Positions 27,519-34,575 of a stretch of 64,000 bases of DNA are shown one piece after another. Below the pieces are notes generated by a model. The model saw only the letters and a list, made by a program, of their open reading frames with translations. It ran no database searches and was not told where the DNA came from. Origin of the DNA: Bacillota bacterium (lineage in GTDB: Bacteria > Bacillota > Clostridia > Acetivibrionales > DTU013); the NCBI GenBank assembly GCA_023435745.1, contig JAEZMD010000007.1:106738-170737 (forward strand). The letters run 5' to 3'. A program made the position numbers and the translations under genes. Every line of letters begins with the position of its first letter. Positions within the stretch are counted from its first letter, which is position 1.

Positions 27519-28466
27519 TCAATCAACCTCCTTTTCCTGGGTAACGATCTGCAGGAATATATCTTCAAGGCTAAGATTAAGTCCTTTTAGTTCGAGAATG
27601 GGATAGCCCAGCTTTGCCATTGCATAGAACAGAGGCTTTCTGATATCGATTTCCTTATCGGACTCAACAATATAGCTGAATGCTTCCCTTTCTTTTTCAA
27701 CTCCTGCTTCAACATACTTCACACCGTAAATTTCCCTTATCGCACTTTCAACAGAGCTCTTCGGTCCGGCTACCGTCAACATAAGCTTGGTCGCGACGCC
27801 AAATCCTCTGGAAAGATTGTCAGGAGTATCTATTGCTGCAATTTCGCCGTTATTGATAATAACGACCCGTTCACAAACAGCACTTACCTCAGGAAGAATA
27901 TGTGAACTGAGAATGATCGTATGCTCTTTGCCCAATGCTTTGATCAGTTTGCGGATTTCGATGATTTGCTTGGGGTCCAGACCGACAGTCGGCTCGTCCA
28001 GTACAAGAACCTGCGGATTTCCGATCAGGGCTTGTGCAAGTCCTACCCTTTGTTTGTACCCTTTGGAAAGGTTTTTGATCAGCCTGTTCCTGTGGTCGCC
28101 GATTTTAACAAGCTCCATAATGTCGCTCAGCTGATTTTTCTTAAGTTTTTTATCCACCAGCTTCAGATCCGCTACAAAATTAAGATAGTCCTTCACTGTC
28201 ATGTCCATATAGACCGGTGGCTGTTCGGGAAGATACCCTGTAAGTTTTTTAACTTCCTTCGGAGACTCCATGATATCATATCCGTTTACCTTTACTGTCC
28301 CTTCACTGGAAGGGATATAACCGGTGATGATATTCATCGTTGTGGACTTGCCTGCTCCATTGGGACCGAGGAATCCGAGAACTTCACCTTTCTCCACAGT
28401 GAAATTCAGATTGTTTACAGCTTTTATCTGACCATATCTTTTGGTCAAATTCTGTATTTCTATCAT
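27519..28466 (-). CDS. ABC transporter ATP-binding protein (GldA-like)
   Basis: Walker A GPNGAGKST, signature LSKGYKQR, Walker B LVLDEPT. Confidence 0.95.
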   Translation of the reverse strand: MIEIQNLTKRYGQIKAVNNLNFTVEKGEVLGFLGPNGAGKSTTMNIITGYIPSSEGTVKVNGYDIMESPKEVKKLTGYLPEQPPVYMDMTVKDYLNFVADLKLVDKKLKKNQLSDIMELVKIGDHRNRLIKNLSKGYKQRVGLAQALIGNPQVLVLDEPTVGLDPKQIIEIRKLIKALGKEHTIILSSHILPEVSAVCERVVIINNGEIAAIDTPDNLSRGFGVATKLMLTVAGPKSSVESAIREIYGVKYVEAGVEKEREAFSYIVESDKEIDIRKPLFYAMAKLGYPILELKGLNLSLEDIFLQIVTQEKEVD

Positions 28467-28537
28467 CTTTTTCCCTCCTGCTTTTCATGTCAATCCGGCA
28501 TGTGATGCTACCACAATTATGAAAGATACATTTTAAT

Positions 28538-28553
28538 AAATTGTGAACAATTT
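28538..28553. promoter_or_regulatory. Palindrome AAATTGT-GA-ACAATTT inside the spacer of a TTTACA/TAAAAT promoter for the ABC operon
   Basis: 7-bp arms seen in the sequence. On the minus strand it is embedded in TTTACA-aattgttcacaatttat-TAAAAT. Confidence 0.4.
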
Positions 28554-28588
28554 GTAAAATAATCATTCATAACATGTTGGGATTACAG

Positions 28589-28620
28589 CCCAAAAAGCCT
28601 CAAAATATGACTTTTAAGGC
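28589..28620 (-). terminator. Intrinsic terminator ending the defence-gene/non-coding-tail transcript
   Basis: Minus strand reads GCCTTAAAA-GTCATA-TTTTGAGGC followed by TTTTTGGG. There is no U-tract in the plus orientation. Confidence 0.7.
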
Positions 28621-28699
28621 TCCACTAATTATATAGTTTTTTATTTTGCATTTCAAGTGGAATTTCTGAGCTTGCTTTTTACTTGCTTTTTTCTCTCTT

Positions 28700-28965
28700 G
28701 CTACCGATTTTGACCGCCCAAAATCGGCGAAAAGGCGCCACTCAAACGACGTGGTGTCTGCTAGGGCACTGAGGAAAAACTTCTATACACCGTGCGACGA
28801 AAAACTTGTGGGGCAGTCGGCGCTTATTCGCCATCTAGGTTGCATAGGCGAGCAGTGAAGCAGTGAAGCTTCACGACCAGCCCATGGACTCAGGCGCGCC
28901 TGAAATGTACATCGTGTACATTTCACTGCCTTCTTTTGTCTTTCCCCGGGTGTATCACGAAGCTT
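28700..28965 (-). ncRNA. Candidate structured non-coding RNA / structured 3' tail (family not recognised)
   Basis: GC-rich core in an ORF-free interval of about 530 nt. It has several perfect hairpins (28704-28727, 28902-28924), a 12-bp palindrome (28891-28902) and nested long-range complementarity (28780-28791 with 28949-28962; 28812-28817 with 28925-28930). The strand is inferred only from the downstream minus-strand terminator. Confidence 0.35.
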
Positions 28966-29121
28966 TTCCTAACACTTTTAAGTGTCTTAGTAGAGCTTCA
29001 TTCTAATATGCTTTTCGATTTCTTCTACTAGCTGATATACGGTAGTACAAGGAGCTCTATCAGCAGGCGAATTTATAGACTCTGATCTGCAAAATAATAG
29101 TCTTGCATTTCGCATTGCATT

Positions 29122-29661
29122 TTAAAGATTAACTTCAGTATTAAGCATAGCAAAATGGTCATCTGATTTATTATATTTGGCCCCAAAAATATCACTAAGT
29201 CTCTTATAATATTCATCTCTTGTGATATTGCTTTCCAATAAATTAAAATGAAGCAAAAACCATAGCTCAATACATTCATTAGACCAAATGGGAATATAGC
29301 CTTTTCGGGCTGCCATATATATTGCGTCGTTAAATTGTCTCTTCGTAAATGAATCTTTATCAAAAACTGCAAAAACCTTTCCGTATGGGATGTTCGTTTT
29401 CCGTTTCAATTCATCAACAAAAGAAAAATACTCATCAACAGAGGATACCAATGACTCAGTGTTCCATCCCGTCCCTTTAATTTCAGGCTTTATTTTCCTA
29501 TCAGACTTTGAATTAACATAATCAAACAAGCTATTAAAGTAATTTGGCTCGGTCTTTTTGCCTTCACAAACAATTAACCATGTCTCCGATCTCGTTTTTA
29601 ATTCCTTTGATTTTCTTTCACGCCGGGCCTTCCCGTATTTTCTAAATAAATCATCCCCCAT
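29122..29661 (-). CDS. RloB-like (Toprim-like) protein, partner of the AAA15 ATPase
   Basis: WLIVCEGKKTEPNYF (conserved Glu) and FAVFDKD (DxD) are typical of RloB/Toprim. The ATG at 29661 is preceded by GAGGAAAA and overlaps the ATPase stop by 11 nt. Confidence 0.8.
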   Translation of the reverse strand: MGDDLFRKYGKARRERKSKELKTRSETWLIVCEGKKTEPNYFNSLFDYVNSKSDRKIKPEIKGTGWNTESLVSSVDEYFSFVDELKRKTNIPYGKVFAVFDKDSFTKRQFNDAIYMAARKGYIPIWSNECIELWFLLHFNLLESNITRDEYYKRLSDIFGAKYNKSDDHFAMLNTEVNL

Positions 29662-30883
29662 TGTCGTTTTCCTCGTCCTGAAATGGTATTGCTCCGAATC
29701 GTCCTGATAAATAATGCTTGCCAAAGCTTAAATCCGACCTGACTAATACTTCATCTTCTTTGAAATCATACAAAGAATACAAATTCGAAACTTGATTAAC
29801 CTTTTCAACAAACCAGATTTCATCTCTGCGTAAATCAGAGGAGTCAAGACAAACTAAATTGTGTGATGAAAAAATCAATTGCCCATCGCCGGTATTCACT
29901 TGTCTGTTACCATATAACGCTATGATATAGCGGAGAATTAAAGGGTGCAATTTTGCATCCAACTCATCAACCCAAAGCACCAATCCATTATAAAGAGAAA
30001 TAAACAACAGCGCCGCTAACGCAAACAATTTTTTAGTTCCACTGGATTCACTCTCGAAAGGTAATTGAATTACGTTTCCTTTATCATCGAGATGATAGCT
30101 ATACACAACATATTTTTCATTTAAGTCTGCATCCTTCTCGGGCAAAATCTCCAGGCGAACGATTGAACTGTCAAATTTACGAAGTAATTCCTCAACATCC
30201 TTTTTATTTTTCTCCCTTTTATATAGAAATTCTGCTATCAATTTTGTGCTCCACTTTTCATTAGAATCATCAGAAAAATCCTGATTCAAGCATGTTAATG
30301 AAAACCATTCGTAAACGTTTCTGTACTCACTTTTTTCTCTGCGACCAACAGCAGTCAATAATAACTCATTATCATTTATCATACTGCCGAGATATTCCAA
30401 CTCTTTTTTCTCAGTTTGATTTAATTTACCAACCGTAACTTTTCTATTGTTCCTGTAAAAAATCATTTTTTCTTTTGATTTTGTCCCTTTAGAAAATTTC
30501 TTTGTATACAGCCATTCATCAAATACTTGTGATTGATTCCTTACAAAACCGTATCTATACTCTTTATCATCAATATTAATGCTAACCTCATATTCGGTCG
30601 GTTCCTTTTCTGTGGTTTTGCTAAAGATATATGGTGTGATCAAATAATGATTTTCTTTTTTTTCATACACTGCCACGACATCTCTTCCCATGCTAAAAAA
30701 AGCAGAAAAAATGTTGGATTTCCCGCTTGCATTTGCGCCAAAAATCGCAGCTATCGGCAGCACCTTATTACCATTCTTTTCAATCAAGCTATTAACATGC
30801 TCCCTAATACTGGTAGCGGTTAAATCCAGCACTGCTTCTTCAGCAAATGATTTATAGTTCTTAAACCTGAATTGTAATAGCAT
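29651..30883 (-). CDS. ABC/AAA15-type ATPase of an AbiL-like two-gene defence module
   Basis: MLLQFRFKNYKSF start, Walker A GANASGKSN, signature-like SESSGTKK, Walker B LVLWVDELD, H-loop SSHN. The start at 30883 lies downstream of the predicted promoter; the track start at 30916 lies inside the -10. Confidence 0.85.
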   Translation of the reverse strand: MLLQFRFKNYKSFAEEAVLDLTATSIREHVNSLIEKNGNKVLPIAAIFGANASGKSNIFSAFFSMGRDVVAVYEKKENHYLITPYIFSKTTEKEPTEYEVSINIDDKEYRYGFVRNQSQVFDEWLYTKKFSKGTKSKEKMIFYRNNRKVTVGKLNQTEKKELEYLGSMINDNELLLTAVGRREKSEYRNVYEWFSLTCLNQDFSDDSNEKWSTKLIAEFLYKREKNKKDVEELLRKFDSSIVRLEILPEKDADLNEKYVVYSYHLDDKGNVIQLPFESESSGTKKLFALAALLFISLYNGLVLWVDELDAKLHPLILRYIIALYGNRQVNTGDGQLIFSSHNLVCLDSSDLRRDEIWFVEKVNQVSNLYSLYDFKEDEVLVRSDLSFGKHYLSGRFGAIPFQDEENDNGG

Positions 30884-30914
30884 GGTACACCCCGCTAAGT
30901 CTTTATTAACTATC

Positions 30915-30942
30915 ATTATATCACCTTCATCAATTTTGTAAA
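30915..30942 (-). promoter_or_regulatory. Sigma-A-like promoter of the defence pair
   Basis: On the minus strand: TTTACA (30937-30942), a 16-nt spacer, then TATAAT (30915-30920). Confidence 0.6.
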
Positions 30943-31147
30943 CATTTTCGAGAATATTTCTCCAAAATGCAGCTTTTTATAAATATTATTGACATATATC
31001 TGTACACTATTCAAACAATAAAGCATTTATACTAAAATTTGGAAGCTGGACATTCAGAAAGGGAGCACTACTGCAAGTGCTTGGAAACACAACCGGACTA
31101 AATGGATCTGACGGTACCTGAAGGGTCACTACCCACCTGGTTTAGTG

Positions 31148-33802
31148 TCACCTTCTTGTCTCTTCCCTCCCCCTTGGGAAGAAGCTGGCGAGCATAGGCA
31201 CAAGGCATGTAAGCCCGACGGTGACGAGCCACTCGTTCAAGCCAAGCGGCACCGTTTTAAAAATGTTCTGTAAAGAAGGAACATATACCACACCAAGCGT
31301 CATAAACAGCGAACAGAGCACTGCCAGTACAAGATACAGATTGTTAAAGATGGGAATCCGGAAGATGCTCATGCGCTCGGATTTACATTCAAACACATGA
31401 ATCAGCTGTGTGAGAACCAGCGTTACAAAAGCGCCTGTCCGTGCCATTCCGATATCGGCGGTATAATAGATCATGGTAATGTACACTGTCAGTGTCGTCA
31501 GGCCGATTAGAATGCCTCTGGAAAGTATAATATTGGCAAGCCCATGTGAAAAGATGCTTTCATCCGCTTTTCTGGGCATTCTCTTCATCACGTCCTTTTC
31601 CGGCGGATCAAAGCCCAGCGCCACTGCAGGCAAGCCATCCGTCACCAGGTTAATCCACAGTATCTGTATTGGAAGCAGAGGGACGGGTAAACCGGCAATC
31701 ATTCCCAGAAACATCGTCAGCACTTCTCCGATATTGCATGCCAGCATATACCTGATAAACTTGCGGATATTATTGTAGATGACCCTTCCCTCTTCAATGG
31801 CCGCTATAATGGTCGCGAAATTATCATCAAGCAGCGTCATGGCGGAGGCCTCCTTAGTCACATCCGTTCCTGTCATCCCCATTGCGACGCCAATATCCGC
31901 TTCTTTCACAGCTGGTGCGTCATTGACGCCGTCCCCGGTCATTGCTACAATATTGCCATTCCTTTTCAATGCTCTGACAATCCTCAGCTTATGCTTGGGC
32001 GAGACTCTCGCATATACGCTTACACCTTCAACAACCCTCTCAAGTTGTTTATCATCCAGTTCGTCCAATTCTGCTCCGGTCATAACCTTTTCATCGTCTG
32101 AGTAAATGCTCAATTCTCTGGCAATGGCGACTGCCGTCAACTTATGATCTCCAGTTATCATGACCGGTTTAATGCCTGCCAGCCTGCATTTGATAACAGC
32201 TTCAGCCGCTTCCTGCCTCGGCGGATCCAGCATTCCGATCAGTCCGATAAAGGTAAGATCCGATTCCAGTTCATCCCTGCTGTAGGGCAGGTAATCAAGC
32301 CTCTTATATGCAACGGCAATCACCCTCAGTGCATCAAGAGCCATTGCATCATTGGCTTTCGATATCTTTCGCTCCAGCTCATGAGTCAGTTGGGTGATCC
32401 CTTTTGCCTGACGGATGCTGCTGCATTTTTTCAGAAGCATATCCGGAGCGCCTTTTGTAAAAACAAGAGTTTCATCATTCTTATTACTGCACACAACGGA
32501 CATGCATTTTCTTTCAGAGTCAAAGGGGATCTCATCGATCCTGTAATACAGGGAGGCAAGCACCTCCGGAGTCAATCCTGCTTTGGCTGAAGCCACCATT
32601 AACGCGCCTTCTGTCGGATCCCCCGTAAAATTCCATTTTGTTTTATCTTGCTTTAAATGCTCACTCACAAGGCCTGCATTGTTGCATACAGCGGCAATCT
32701 CAAGGGCAAGCCTCACCACCTGATCCTTCAAAGGATCGATAGTACTGCCTCCTGAAAAAAATATATGCCCGTTTCCTTTTTTATCCTTGAGTTCCACCAC
32801 GCGGTCCCCTGCAAAAATCTTTCTGACTGTCATTTTATTCTGTGTCAGTGTCCCTGTCTTGTCAGAGCACACTACTCCGGCACATCCCAGCGTTTCCACC
32901 GCAGGAAGCCTTCTGATCAGAGCATTTCTCTTCAGCATTCTCTGAACGCCAAGTGCCAGCGAAATAGTAACTAACGCAGGCAATCCCTCCGGCACGGCCG
33001 CAACAGCAAGACTGATACCTGAAAGCAGCATGGAAAACGCATCCTCACCCCTCATGATTCCCGCTGCGGTCACGATCGCACATATGACCAGGCACCCGGC
33101 CGCAATGACCTTTCCAAGCTTCGCAAGTCTCTTCTGAAGCGGCGTCTGCTCTTCTTCGATGTTTTGTATCAAGTCGGCAATGCCGCCCATTTCCGTATTC
33201 ATGCCGGTGGCTGTAACAAGCGCTCTGGCTCTGCCCCCTGTTATGCTTGTGCCCATAAATACTCTGTTCTTTTTTTCTCCCAAGCCCATTTCTCTGTCCG
33301 GTGATACGGCAAACTTCTCCACAGGCACCGATTCTCCCGTGAGAAGGGATTCATCCACCTGAATACTTGAGCTTTCCAGTATAACCGCATCGGCTGGGAT
33401 TCTGTCGCCTGTTTCGAGTATGATCACATCCCCCGGAACAATCTGCTCTGCAGGGATGCTGATATGTCTGCCGCTTCGCAGCACCTTTGCTGCAGGCGCT
33501 GTTAAACTCTTCAGCGCCTCCATGGTTCTTTCCGTTCTGAATTCCTGAATAAAGCCCAGCAAGGCATTGAGAACAATAATTGCAATGATTGTGACCGCTT
33601 CGGTCATTTCTCCCATGAACGCAGAAATTGCTGTCGAAGCCATAAGAATGATTACCATGATATCTTTAAATTGGCCAAGCAGCAGTTTTATCATTGATAT
33701 TTTCTTTTTTTCTGAAAGCAGGTTCGGGCCGTGCTCCAGCAGCTTCTTTTTTGCCTCTCTCTCGCTCAGCCCGATACCCGAAGACGTATACTGTCTGTTC
33801 AA
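31148..33802 (-). CDS. P-type cation-transporting ATPase (Ca2+/Mg2+ P2-type)
   Basis: 884 aa with phosphorylation motif CSDKTGTLTQN, TGES, and hinge MTGDGVNDAPA. Apparent TTG start at 33802. Confidence 0.9.
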   Translation of the reverse strand: MNRQYTSSGIGLSEREAKKKLLEHGPNLLSEKKKISMIKLLLGQFKDIMVIILMASTAISAFMGEMTEAVTIIAIIVLNALLGFIQEFRTERTMEALKSLTAPAAKVLRSGRHISIPAEQIVPGDVIILETGDRIPADAVILESSSIQVDESLLTGESVPVEKFAVSPDREMGLGEKKNRVFMGTSITGGRARALVTATGMNTEMGGIADLIQNIEEEQTPLQKRLAKLGKVIAAGCLVICAIVTAAGIMRGEDAFSMLLSGISLAVAAVPEGLPALVTISLALGVQRMLKRNALIRRLPAVETLGCAGVVCSDKTGTLTQNKMTVRKIFAGDRVVELKDKKGNGHIFFSGGSTIDPLKDQVVRLALEIAAVCNNAGLVSEHLKQDKTKWNFTGDPTEGALMVASAKAGLTPEVLASLYYRIDEIPFDSERKCMSVVCSNKNDETLVFTKGAPDMLLKKCSSIRQAKGITQLTHELERKISKANDAMALDALRVIAVAYKRLDYLPYSRDELESDLTFIGLIGMLDPPRQEAAEAVIKCRLAGIKPVMITGDHKLTAVAIARELSIYSDDEKVMTGAELDELDDKQLERVVEGVSVYARVSPKHKLRIVRALKRNGNIVAMTGDGVNDAPAVKEADIGVAMGMTGTDVTKEASAMTLLDDNFATIIAAIEEGRVIYNNIRKFIRYMLACNIGEVLTMFLGMIAGLPVPLLPIQILWINLVTDGLPAVALGFDPPEKDVMKRMPRKADESIFSHGLANIILSRGILIGLTTLTVYITMIYYTADIGMARTGAFVTLVLTQLIHVFECKSERMSIFRIPIFNNLYLVLAVLCSLFMTLGVVYVPSLQNIFKTVPLGLNEWLVTVGLTCLVPMLASFFPRGREETRR

Positions 33803-33912: not shown

Positions 33913-34575
33913 TTATTGCTCGTACACCTTTTTCACACCCTCAATGCTCTGAATATCCGCGAGGGTCTGCAGATCGATCGTACTGCCCGGCATCTTCACC
34001 AGCAGCTTGATTCTCGTTTCGTTTTCCTTGCTCTTGTATAGCTGTATATTCTTAATATCTATTTTGTATTGCTCCAGCATGCCGCTGACAGCACCGACCA
34101 GGCCGGGAGCATTATCGGACTCAACTATAAAGGTTCTATACCTGTTTCTCTTTGAAAAATGTTTTTCTGCCTTCTTCAGAATAATTAATGTGAGGAAAAT
34201 GAAAATAGTGGCGGCAACAGCCCCGCTGTAAAAACCCGCGCCTGCCGCAATACCAACACACGAAACCGCCCATAAGCTAGCGGCTGTTGTCAGTCCTCGG
34301 ACATTGAACCCATCGCGTATAATCGTGCCGGCGCCAAGGAAACCAACCCCGCTGACAACCTGAGCGCCAAGCCTTGTCGGATCAATACCTGCCAACCCCG
34401 TGTACCTCCTGAAGGTAAACTCAGAGGTGACCATGACAAGAGCAGCTCCGACACACACCAAAATATGTGTCCTGAAGCCGGCCGGCCTGCTCGTATGCTC
34501 CCTCTCATAACCGATCGCTCCGCCAAGTCCAACAGATAGCAATAGCCGGAGCACCATCTCAACAGCAAAAGGCAT
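33913..34575 (-). CDS. mgtC: MgtC/SapB-family membrane protein
   Basis: LLLSVGLGGAIGYEREHTSRPAGFRTHILV is typical of MgtC; there is a C-terminal soluble domain. Confidence 0.85.
   Translation of the reverse strand: MPFAVEMVLRLLLSVGLGGAIGYEREHTSRPAGFRTHILVCVGAALVMVTSEFTFRRYTGLAGIDPTRLGAQVVSGVGFLGAGTIIRDGFNVRGLTTAASLWAVSCVGIAAGAGFYSGAVAATIFIFLTLIILKKAEKHFSKRNRYRTFIVESDNAPGLVGAVSGMLEQYKIDIKNIQLYKSKENETRIKLLVKMPGSTIDLQTLADIQSIEGVKKVYEQ

Follow-up and report, generated by a model that had tools for sequence, protein, structure and literature searches.

What is the GC-rich, apparently gene-free DNA that follows a bacterial defense gene pair, and does it belong to that pair? The question is raised by positions 28589 to 29121 of a 64-kb stretch of Bacillota DNA (here called the window), which lie downstream of two abortive-infection (Abi) genes of the AbiL type: abiLi, encoding an ATPase, and abiLii, encoding an RloB-family protein. 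No open reading frame (ORF) of 60 amino acids (aa) or more occurs in this interval, the longest being 47 aa, and a first-pass annotation had taken the whole of it for a candidate structured RNA associated with the defense genes. We found that the interval is a composite of the 3′ end of the RloB frame, a structured element that we call type A, a short spacer, and an ancestral promoter and terminator. Type A probably belongs to a new family of structured noncoding elements, portable and narrowly distributed, and it is not tied to AbiL.

Anatomy of the interval and distribution of type A

The ~530-nucleotide (nt) tail, which had been treated as one unit, resolves into these four distinct parts. 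Its presumed start, at 29122, had been set by a TAA taken for the RloB stop; this codon is premature, and the RloB frame runs on through 28990-29121. Type A begins directly at the original RloB stop codon. At the far end of the interval, positions 28589-28665 are ancestral host sequence that is present also in relatives lacking the defense genes. The reported contrast in base composition was borne out, as the GC fraction peaks at 0.555 in 28700-28899 versus 0.29 to 0.38 in the AbiL genes (the value for the whole window is 0.444). The prediction of an undescribed structured RNA survives in part for the GC-rich core, which is discrete, conserved, strongly structured, noncoding, and without a match in Rfam, but not for the interval as a single unit.

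The edges of type A were set by homology amid unrelated flanking sequence: alignments with loci L091, L092, L094, and L098 begin and end at 28988 and 28704. An exact search with an invariant 32-mer matched two contigs among 241 million metagenome records, and these match the window over 28704-28988 only, at 87 to 88% identity. A library-wide HMMER search with a 61-aa translation returned P0124, whose 574-nt contig (L098) holds an ~84% identical copy, and the spurious ORF called over the block led to further copies in a second genomic context. There, the element lies ~70 nt past the stop codon of a gene for a 761-aa UvrD-like helicase, in the same orientation, with no AbiL genes nearby and an SNF2 helicase gene next downstream; the size and domain layout of the 761-aa protein suggest that it resembles HelD. 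The L098 contig also contains, at positions 150-260 upstream of its divergent type A copy, a further long and perfect GC-rich hairpin (GCACAAGGGGACGGTTCT...AGAACCGTCCCCTTGTGC), and it looks like a stack of structured modules with no gene.

The distribution of type A is narrow and covers a few Ruminiclostridium-like lineages. An exact 41-mer scan of genome contigs and a scan of viral contigs with three exact patterns gave no matches, nor did BLASTN of the interval against plasmids and phages, and no second copy occurs in the window or in any of the 15- to 17-kb loci that were analyzed. When the window and loci L083, L084, L090, and L091 were compared with the 4,227 models of Rfam 15, none matched at the gathering score; permissive Rfam searches of 28400-29300 and of the L084 insert described below yielded nothing credible (best subthreshold E values, 0.23 to 0.44).

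The proposal that the block is an RNA component of the RloB/ATPase module was not supported. Loci L083, L084, L090, L100, and L101 are orthologous to the window, with the synteny MgtC-ATPase-AbiLi-AbiLii-ABC (ATP-binding cassette) transporter. After the RloB stop, L090 carries the same block as the window, L100 carries the element without the hairpin at 28843-28886, and the contig of L101 ends 100 nt into the element. L083 has nothing after the RloB stop, with 258 nt remaining to the ABC start, and L084 has an ~470-nt insert of unrelated sequence whose GC-rich ~270-nt part is a second kind of element, type B. The element is also missing from L102, another AbiL locus; the RloB identities are 82% for L083 and 71% for L102. 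A covariance-model search for type A in the L084 insert and in L102 gave no match. Type A is no regular component of AbiL loci, being absent from two of them and replaced in a third. Nor do its homologs always sit 3′ of RloB/AAA15 pairs, as the HelD-like helicase context shows.

Fold, covariation, and conservation of type A

On the minus strand, the 293 nt at 28700-28992 have a predicted minimum free energy (MFE) of −121.7 kcal/mol, compared with −85.3 ± 5.1 kcal/mol for shuffled sequences (z = −7.1); the plus strand of the same segment gives −113.9 kcal/mol (z = −5.65). The predicted fold is a long irregular rod that encloses an optional hairpin and the CGA-loop hairpin P7, with two further hairpins on its 3′ side (Table 1). 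The pairings listed in the first-pass annotation are all found among the helices of the MFE fold. They include the CCGATTTT/AAAATCGG stem (28704-28711 and 28720-28727), the 10-bp stem with a 3-nt loop (28902-28924), the palindrome CAGGCGCGCCTG (28891-28902), and two tandem copies of CAGTGAAG (28853-28868; period 8 in Tandem Repeats Finder [TRF]) with CTTCAC next to them (28869-28874), as well as the GGCG/CGCC/GGCG triplet and both long-range complementarities, each of which is present where it had been placed. In the fold, the palindromes of the core form stems and the junctions between stems.

Six near-identical sequences alone gave weak covariation, with three pairs changed on both sides. 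After L098, L100, and L101 had been added, the nine sequences, which represent ~4 lineages, were counted in a model-guided alignment, since MAFFT had misaligned the divergent L098 copy locally. In this set, 98.0% of cells were paired, and 10 base pairs distributed over 7 of the 12 helices had changed on both sides, a result that none of 500 column shuffles reached and for which slid controls gave 0 or 1. Compensatory changes in L098 could be followed by eye in P7 (U-A to G-C), in GGCGC/GCGCC (to GGCAC/GUGCC), and in GGCAGU/ACUGCC (to GGCGGU/ACCGCC), and L100 has changed GCUUC/GAAGU to GUUUC/GAAAC. Stability relative to shuffled sequences and compensatory base pairs, the general marks of a structured RNA, are both present, the latter in nine sequences whose alignment was fitted to the model.

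Indels in the element follow its fold. L093 and L100 both lack the entire hairpin at 28843-28886, and in L098 the loop of this hairpin has lost 3 nt and a junction carries a 29-nt insertion. The optional module at 28836-28882, which holds the tandem CAGTGAAG copies, has been lost in two contexts (L093 and L100) with near-identical deletion ends.

The core is noncoding. A coding function was rejected on three observations: a 47-nt deletion breaks every frame, compensatory changes produce Y-to-D and Y-to-S replacements in the only recurrent mini-ORF, and the 30-aa ATG-initiated ORF of the window (28742-28834) loses its start codon in L091.

Type A is more conserved than the genes beside it. Between the window and L090, the element is 95.0% identical, whereas abiLi is 84.1%, abiLii 83.6%, and the ABC genes 87 to 93% identical; third-codon positions of the flanking genes are 74 to 83% identical, and the adjacent spacer is 58% identical. 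Judged from these alignments, 95% identity beside such third-codon positions would need selection or repeated conversion. In the HelD-like context and on the separate small contig L098, the element remains 84 to 88% identical. Six aligned copies show no variation in a 45-nt stretch around the CGA-loop hairpin, where L098 differs only by compensatory substitutions and a few unpaired ones. Type A is a real, previously uncatalogued element with decent structural support.

Folded RNA domain or mobile DNA repeat

The reading that we prefer, with a probability of roughly 55%, is that the core of the composite interval is a portable structured element that acts as a folded 3′ domain of RNA, independently of AbiL. 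According to this proposal, the abiLi-abiLii mRNA would start at the promoter-like site at 30915-30942, and type A would be transcribed as its 3′ untranslated region (UTR), with read-through to the hairpin and U-run at 28589-28620. Transcription as a 3′ UTR is proposed because we saw neither a conserved promoter nor a terminator of its own in type A. The earlier notion of a cotranscribed structured 3′ extension is likewise the simplest account of the core, but about one-quarter of the supposed tail is disabled coding sequence. Type A would then work at the RNA level, as a processing or stability module or as the source of a 3′-UTR-derived RNA, in a role that would not depend on what the upstream gene encodes. 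Strand comparisons are consistent with action of the gene-sense strand: the consensus fold reaches −82.7 kcal/mol in this sense versus −62.8 kcal/mol in antisense, the sense MFE is better in six of seven copies, and the orientation relative to the upstream gene is the same in both contexts.

Several observations weigh against this reading. The transcription and 3′ ends of type A are ones that we infer. The strand comparison is weak: both strands fold well (z = −7.1 and −5.7), G-U occurs in 24 pairs versus A-C in 17 when the pairs predicted for sense and antisense are combined (a difference that is not significant), and Watson-Crick covariation is strand-neutral, so that a hairpin of single-stranded DNA would fit equally well. 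The covariation, moreover, comes from just nine sequences of ~4 lineages, counted in an alignment that was fitted to the model. Signs of repeat-like behavior add to these points: a 40-nt fragment of type B abuts type A in L094, Logan contigs end inside type A (SRR13347280 at 28731-28758 and L101 at element position 100), and L093 is a chimera that resembles the helicase-context type in its 5′ half (99%) and the RloB-context type in its 3′ half (91%). Finally, a simple stabilizer hairpin is not expected to need 95% conservation over 281 nt, and the role stated above may be too modest. A more ambitious version, which we consider unlikely, holds that type A, possibly together with type B, forms a new ~285-nt class of functional RNA, such as a ribonucleoprotein scaffold, a ribozyme, or a guide-like RNA, that spreads as a self-contained unit to gene 3′ ends within variable or defense-rich regions of Ruminiclostridium-like Clostridia; the near-invariant 45-nt core around the CGA-loop hairpin would then be its active or protein-binding site.

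Type B bears on these questions. One copy (B1) lies after RloB in L084 (5672-5960), and another (B2) lies upstream of the helicase gene in L094 (5116-5480). Type B is ~270 to 300 nt long, GC-rich, and almost perfectly self-complementary over its full length (z about −7 on either strand), B1 matches its own reverse strand (E = 4e−10), and the L084 copy has no match in Rfam. We saw no homology between types A and B beyond one module of ~50 nt and a common CGA-loop hairpin; in type B, the latter has the form GGCA-CGA-UGCC, reminiscent of that in type A. The optional hairpin of type A resembles part of B2 in reverse (score, 43 versus 22 ± 3 for shuffles). The type B fragment next to type A, 40 to 63 nt long (CAGGACAYTAYCAGCCTGCCTATGACGTAACCYGATGCAT; L094:7995-8057 and L091:2304-2366), lies past the stop codon of the helicase gene and runs in reverse orientation. 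With B2 before the gene and this fragment after it, the helicase gene is thus bracketed by type B sequence in opposite orientations. Logan contigs end inside type B in five runs. The contig breaks and the L093 chimera suggest more than one copy per genome and exchange between copies, which fits a mobile repeat as well as it fits a multicopy RNA gene.

The main rival reading, less likely than the first but serious, is that type A is a nonautonomous mobile DNA repeat, i.e., a large imperfect palindrome such as a miniature inverted-repeat transposable element (MITE), an ERIC or Correia element, or a palindrome-associated element of the IS200/IS605 (PATE) type, whose hairpins matter in DNA or simply mirror inverted repeats and whose transcription is incidental read-through. 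Its presence or absence at orthologous sites (none in L083, another element in L084), the equal size and whole-length self-complementarity of type B, the contact with a type B fragment in L094 and the reversed B2 likeness of the optional hairpin, the recombinant L093, and the lack of a significant G-U versus A-C asymmetry would all be at home in such a repeat, as would contigs that break inside A and B, which is expected if other places share 31-mers or longer words with them. What speaks against it is that type A has no terminal inverted repeats and no recognizable target-site duplication. Its ends, AAGACACTT... and ...CAAAATCGG, are not complementary, as those of a MITE would be, and no target-site duplication was seen at the junctions in the two contexts, a weak test given that neither offers a clean empty site. 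An IS200/IS605-derived PATE would have similar subterminal hairpins at both ends and a cognate TnpA in the genome; in type A, the 5′ hairpin (28971-28986) and the 3′ hairpin (28703-28728) differ in sequence by eye. Nor does a mobile repeat sit easily with the single copy per locus, with the rarity of the invariant 32-mer (2 of 241 million metagenome records and none in the viral collection), with a consensus fold that favors one strand by 20 kcal/mol, or with an identity at the orthologous site that needs selection or repeated conversion. That the element is instead a functional partner of the AbiLi/AbiLii pair, as an antitoxin, sensor, or regulator, appears very improbable. It does directly follow abiLii, with the same orientation and no intervening terminator, it has been retained in four related AbiL loci (the window, L090, L100, and L101), and several other Abi systems include an RNA (PMC13064643). 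However, one insertion in an ancestor accounts for these four loci, which all lie at the same chromosomal site, AbiL loci exist without the element (L083 and L102) or with an insert of unrelated sequence (L084), the element stands behind a HelD-like helicase gene without AbiL, and abiLii is itself truncated in this strain. Moreover, AbiL is described as a two-protein system of an ATPase and a TOPRIM protein and is listed among two-component systems without RNA (PMC13064643), and our literature searches found no RNA linked to AbiL/RloB.

The remaining explanation, a decayed protein gene, assembly artifact, or cloning scar as the source of the GC-rich core, can practically be dismissed. Dense palindromes of 6 to 8 bp do coincide with restriction sites, and a short ORF was called over the core in some assemblies (P0121, P0122, and P0124). 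These spurious ORFs are, however, the only database "proteins" that match the translation, the 47-, 29-, and 3-nt indels and the compensatory stem changes are incompatible with a coding frame, and the palindromes are accounted for by the fold. An artifact is excluded because the element is carried by metagenomes and by assemblies made independently (Logan, ENA, JGI, and GenBank) from different samples.

If type A works as RNA, it adds an undescribed multihelix RNA family that can move between loci, and when a sequence is both mobile and held more tightly than the neighboring protein genes, a specific molecular partner is usually involved. Should it be a DNA repeat, it documents a mosaic family of large palindromes, present in cellulolytic Clostridia, that remodel operon 3′ ends and disrupt short-read assemblies. 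Either way, the idea that AbiL/RloB modules need an RNA has no evidence behind it.

The surrounding locus and comparison with known systems

Table 1. Features of the AbiL locus and of the type A element (positions are those of the window)
Feature	Position	Strand	Evidence or remark
MgtC	33913-34575	−	
P-type ATPase	31148-33802	−	
abiLi promoter-like site, TTTACA-16-TG-TATAAT	30915-30942	−	Overlaps first ATG
abiLi (ABC/AAA_21 ATPase)	29651-30916	−	Pfam AAA_21, 4e−30; PADLOC AbiLi, 1e−81
abiLii/RloB, 179 aa, truncated	29122-29661	−	Pfam RloB 2-147/195, 109.7 bits; PADLOC AbiLii, 8e−23
In-frame RloB 3′ remnant	28987-29121	−	44 codons (28990-29121) plus original TAA stop (28987-28989); C-terminus alignment, Pfam
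Type A structured element, 285 nt	28704-28988	−	Boundaries from homology amid unrelated flanks; fold z; covariation
Long irregular rod of type A	Closed by 28938-28970/28772-28805	−	Predicted fold
Hairpin P7, CGA loop, inside rod	28902-28924	−	Predicted fold
Optional 17-bp hairpin inside rod	28843-28886	−	Predicted fold
Two 3′ hairpins of type A	28735-28769 and 28703-28728	−	Predicted fold
Spacer, A-rich, unconserved	28666-28703	None	58% identity plus indels, window versus L090
Sigma-70-like promoter, TTGAAA-17-TATAAT	28628-28656	−	11/12 match; invariant in relatives with and without AbiL genes
Hairpin plus U-run, intrinsic-terminator-like	28589-28620	−	−14.9 kcal/mol, z = −2.7; begins just past the −10 box of the promoter
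ABC-operon promoter-like site, TTTACA-17-TAAAAT	28530-28558	−	Block strongly conserved across all relatives
ABC-transporter operon	From 28466 downwards	−	

The abiLii gene of the window is shorter than its relatives (179 aa versus 224 to 228 aa in RloB homologs) through a single-base change at 29122-29124 from AAA (Lys), the codon of relatives, to TAA. Beyond this codon, the frame translates to NAMRNARLLFCRSESINSPADRAPCTTVYQLVEEIEKHIRMKLY followed by the original stop, which aligns with the conserved C termini of P0002 to P0007, and reading the TAA as Lys extends the Pfam RloB match to 2-195/195 (137.8 bits). The change is also present in the independent Logan assembly SRR13347280. Inactivation of abiLii looks recent, since the remainder of the frame is intact, and the nonsense codon has probably disabled the AbiL system of this strain: the ABC/Rad50-like ATPase AbiLi is in place, but the TOPRIM/RloB-type AbiLii protein, full length in an AbiL system, is cut at residue 179. 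The annotated abiLi ATG at 30916 overlaps the −10 box of the gene's own promoter-like site (30882-30942 region); the true start is probably the ATG ~30 nt downstream, which has GGGG before it, and relatives are annotated at 409 to 420 aa. In L102 (31-8536), the more distant AbiL pair adjoins a type I restriction HsdR gene on a putative mobile element with HTH_17, Prim-Pol/DUF5906 primase, and resolvase genes, so that the AbiL pair appears to travel on mobile elements.

All genes of this neighborhood are on the minus strand. Relatives of the locus were found via the ABC ATPase and comprised metagenome-assembled genomes labeled Oscillospiraceae, Ruminiclostridium, or Bacillota (85 to 89% identity) and Ruminiclostridium papyrosolvens (77%). 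In L003, L006, and L007, the ATPase gene directly adjoins the block upstream of the ABC genes, the AbiL genes are absent, and homology to the window resumes at 28657-28665. In L004 (5357-7815), the site holds a different 2.4-kb insert with unknown ORFs and a fragment of an rve_2 integrase. The AbiL pair fills this gap (28665-31147) in the window as well as in L083, L084, and L090. Since the site is empty in some relatives and differently filled in another, the AbiL pair occupies a variable site, the ATPase-ABC intergenic gap, whose cargo differs between relatives. We saw no convincing repeats flanking the AbiL insert, and a scan for tRNA and transfer-messenger RNA found none.

The ancestral segment at the end of the interval holds a unit of its own. 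The claim that the interval has no convincing internal promoter missed the TTGAAA-17-TATAAT site (Table 1), whereas the hairpin and U-run were confirmed as a minus-strand-only feature in which a stable hairpin is followed by UUUUU, as in an intrinsic terminator; a simple scanner overlooked it on account of an internal mismatch. The hairpin is kept in relatives with an empty site, and in L007 the stem differs and is still self-complementary, as judged by eye and not by counting pairs. All relatives retain the promoter-hairpin unit (28589-28656) upstream of the promoter of the ABC operon itself, with a stem sequence that varies among them, and a transcript from its promoter would be little more than the hairpin itself. 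The unit may be a tiny RNA or a leader or attenuator.

Palindromic intergenic repeats that are cotranscribed with genes and fold in mRNA include ERIC/IRU sequences, the Correia elements of Neisseria, REP/BIME mosaics, and the bcr repeats of Bacillus cereus. As compared with general descriptions of these families rather than with their sequences, type A is similarly noncoding and located between genes, just after a gene; it is a whole-length imperfect palindrome that forms a long hairpin, it is present or absent at orthologous sites, it takes part in a mosaic of modules (type A, type B, and the type B fragment), and there are hints of several copies and of recombination between them. It differs from them in its length of ~285 nt and its branched core in place of a simple hairpin, in having no terminal inverted repeats or target duplications that we could see, in being very scarce in public data while conserved above its neighboring genes, and in the modest strand preference of its consensus fold.

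Rfam also holds orphan structured bacterial noncoding RNA motifs, e.g., raiA, OLE, and HEARO, and a survey of 224 candidates reportedly added further motifs of this kind. Type A shares with the orphan motifs a discrete conserved block, a strong fold, compensatory changes, and the modular gain and loss of hairpins; unlike them, it has a narrow distribution and matches none of the 4,227 models at the gathering score. Like the RNAs of Abi and toxin-antitoxin systems (ToxI/antiQ and the AbiD/AbiF/AbiV type [PMC13064643]), it is a candidate noncoding RNA that adjoins an abortive-infection module, although it is unlinked to defense genes across loci. It also lacks the ~30- to 40-nt tandem array of ToxI-like type III antitoxins (TRF found only an 8-nt unit repeated 2.4 times and an 11-nt unit repeated 1.9 times), and it lies downstream rather than upstream of the genes. 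A retron is not indicated, as no reverse transcriptase domain was found among the neighboring MgtC, P-type ATPase, AbiLi, AbiLii, and ABC-transporter proteins.

A functional comparison comes from the same bacterial group. In Ruminiclostridium cellulolyticum, intergenic stem-loops direct selective mRNA processing and stabilization (PMC10311766). These are likewise GC-rich stem-loops between codirectional genes, and type A, too, could plausibly act in cis from the 3′ end of the preceding message. Whereas the R. cellulolyticum stem-loops are single structures of one operon, type A is a 285-nt multihelix element with a conserved sequence and the ability to move between loci. By analogy, the R. cellulolyticum stem-loops provide a precedent for a role of type A in the processing or stability of mRNA from its 3′ UTR.

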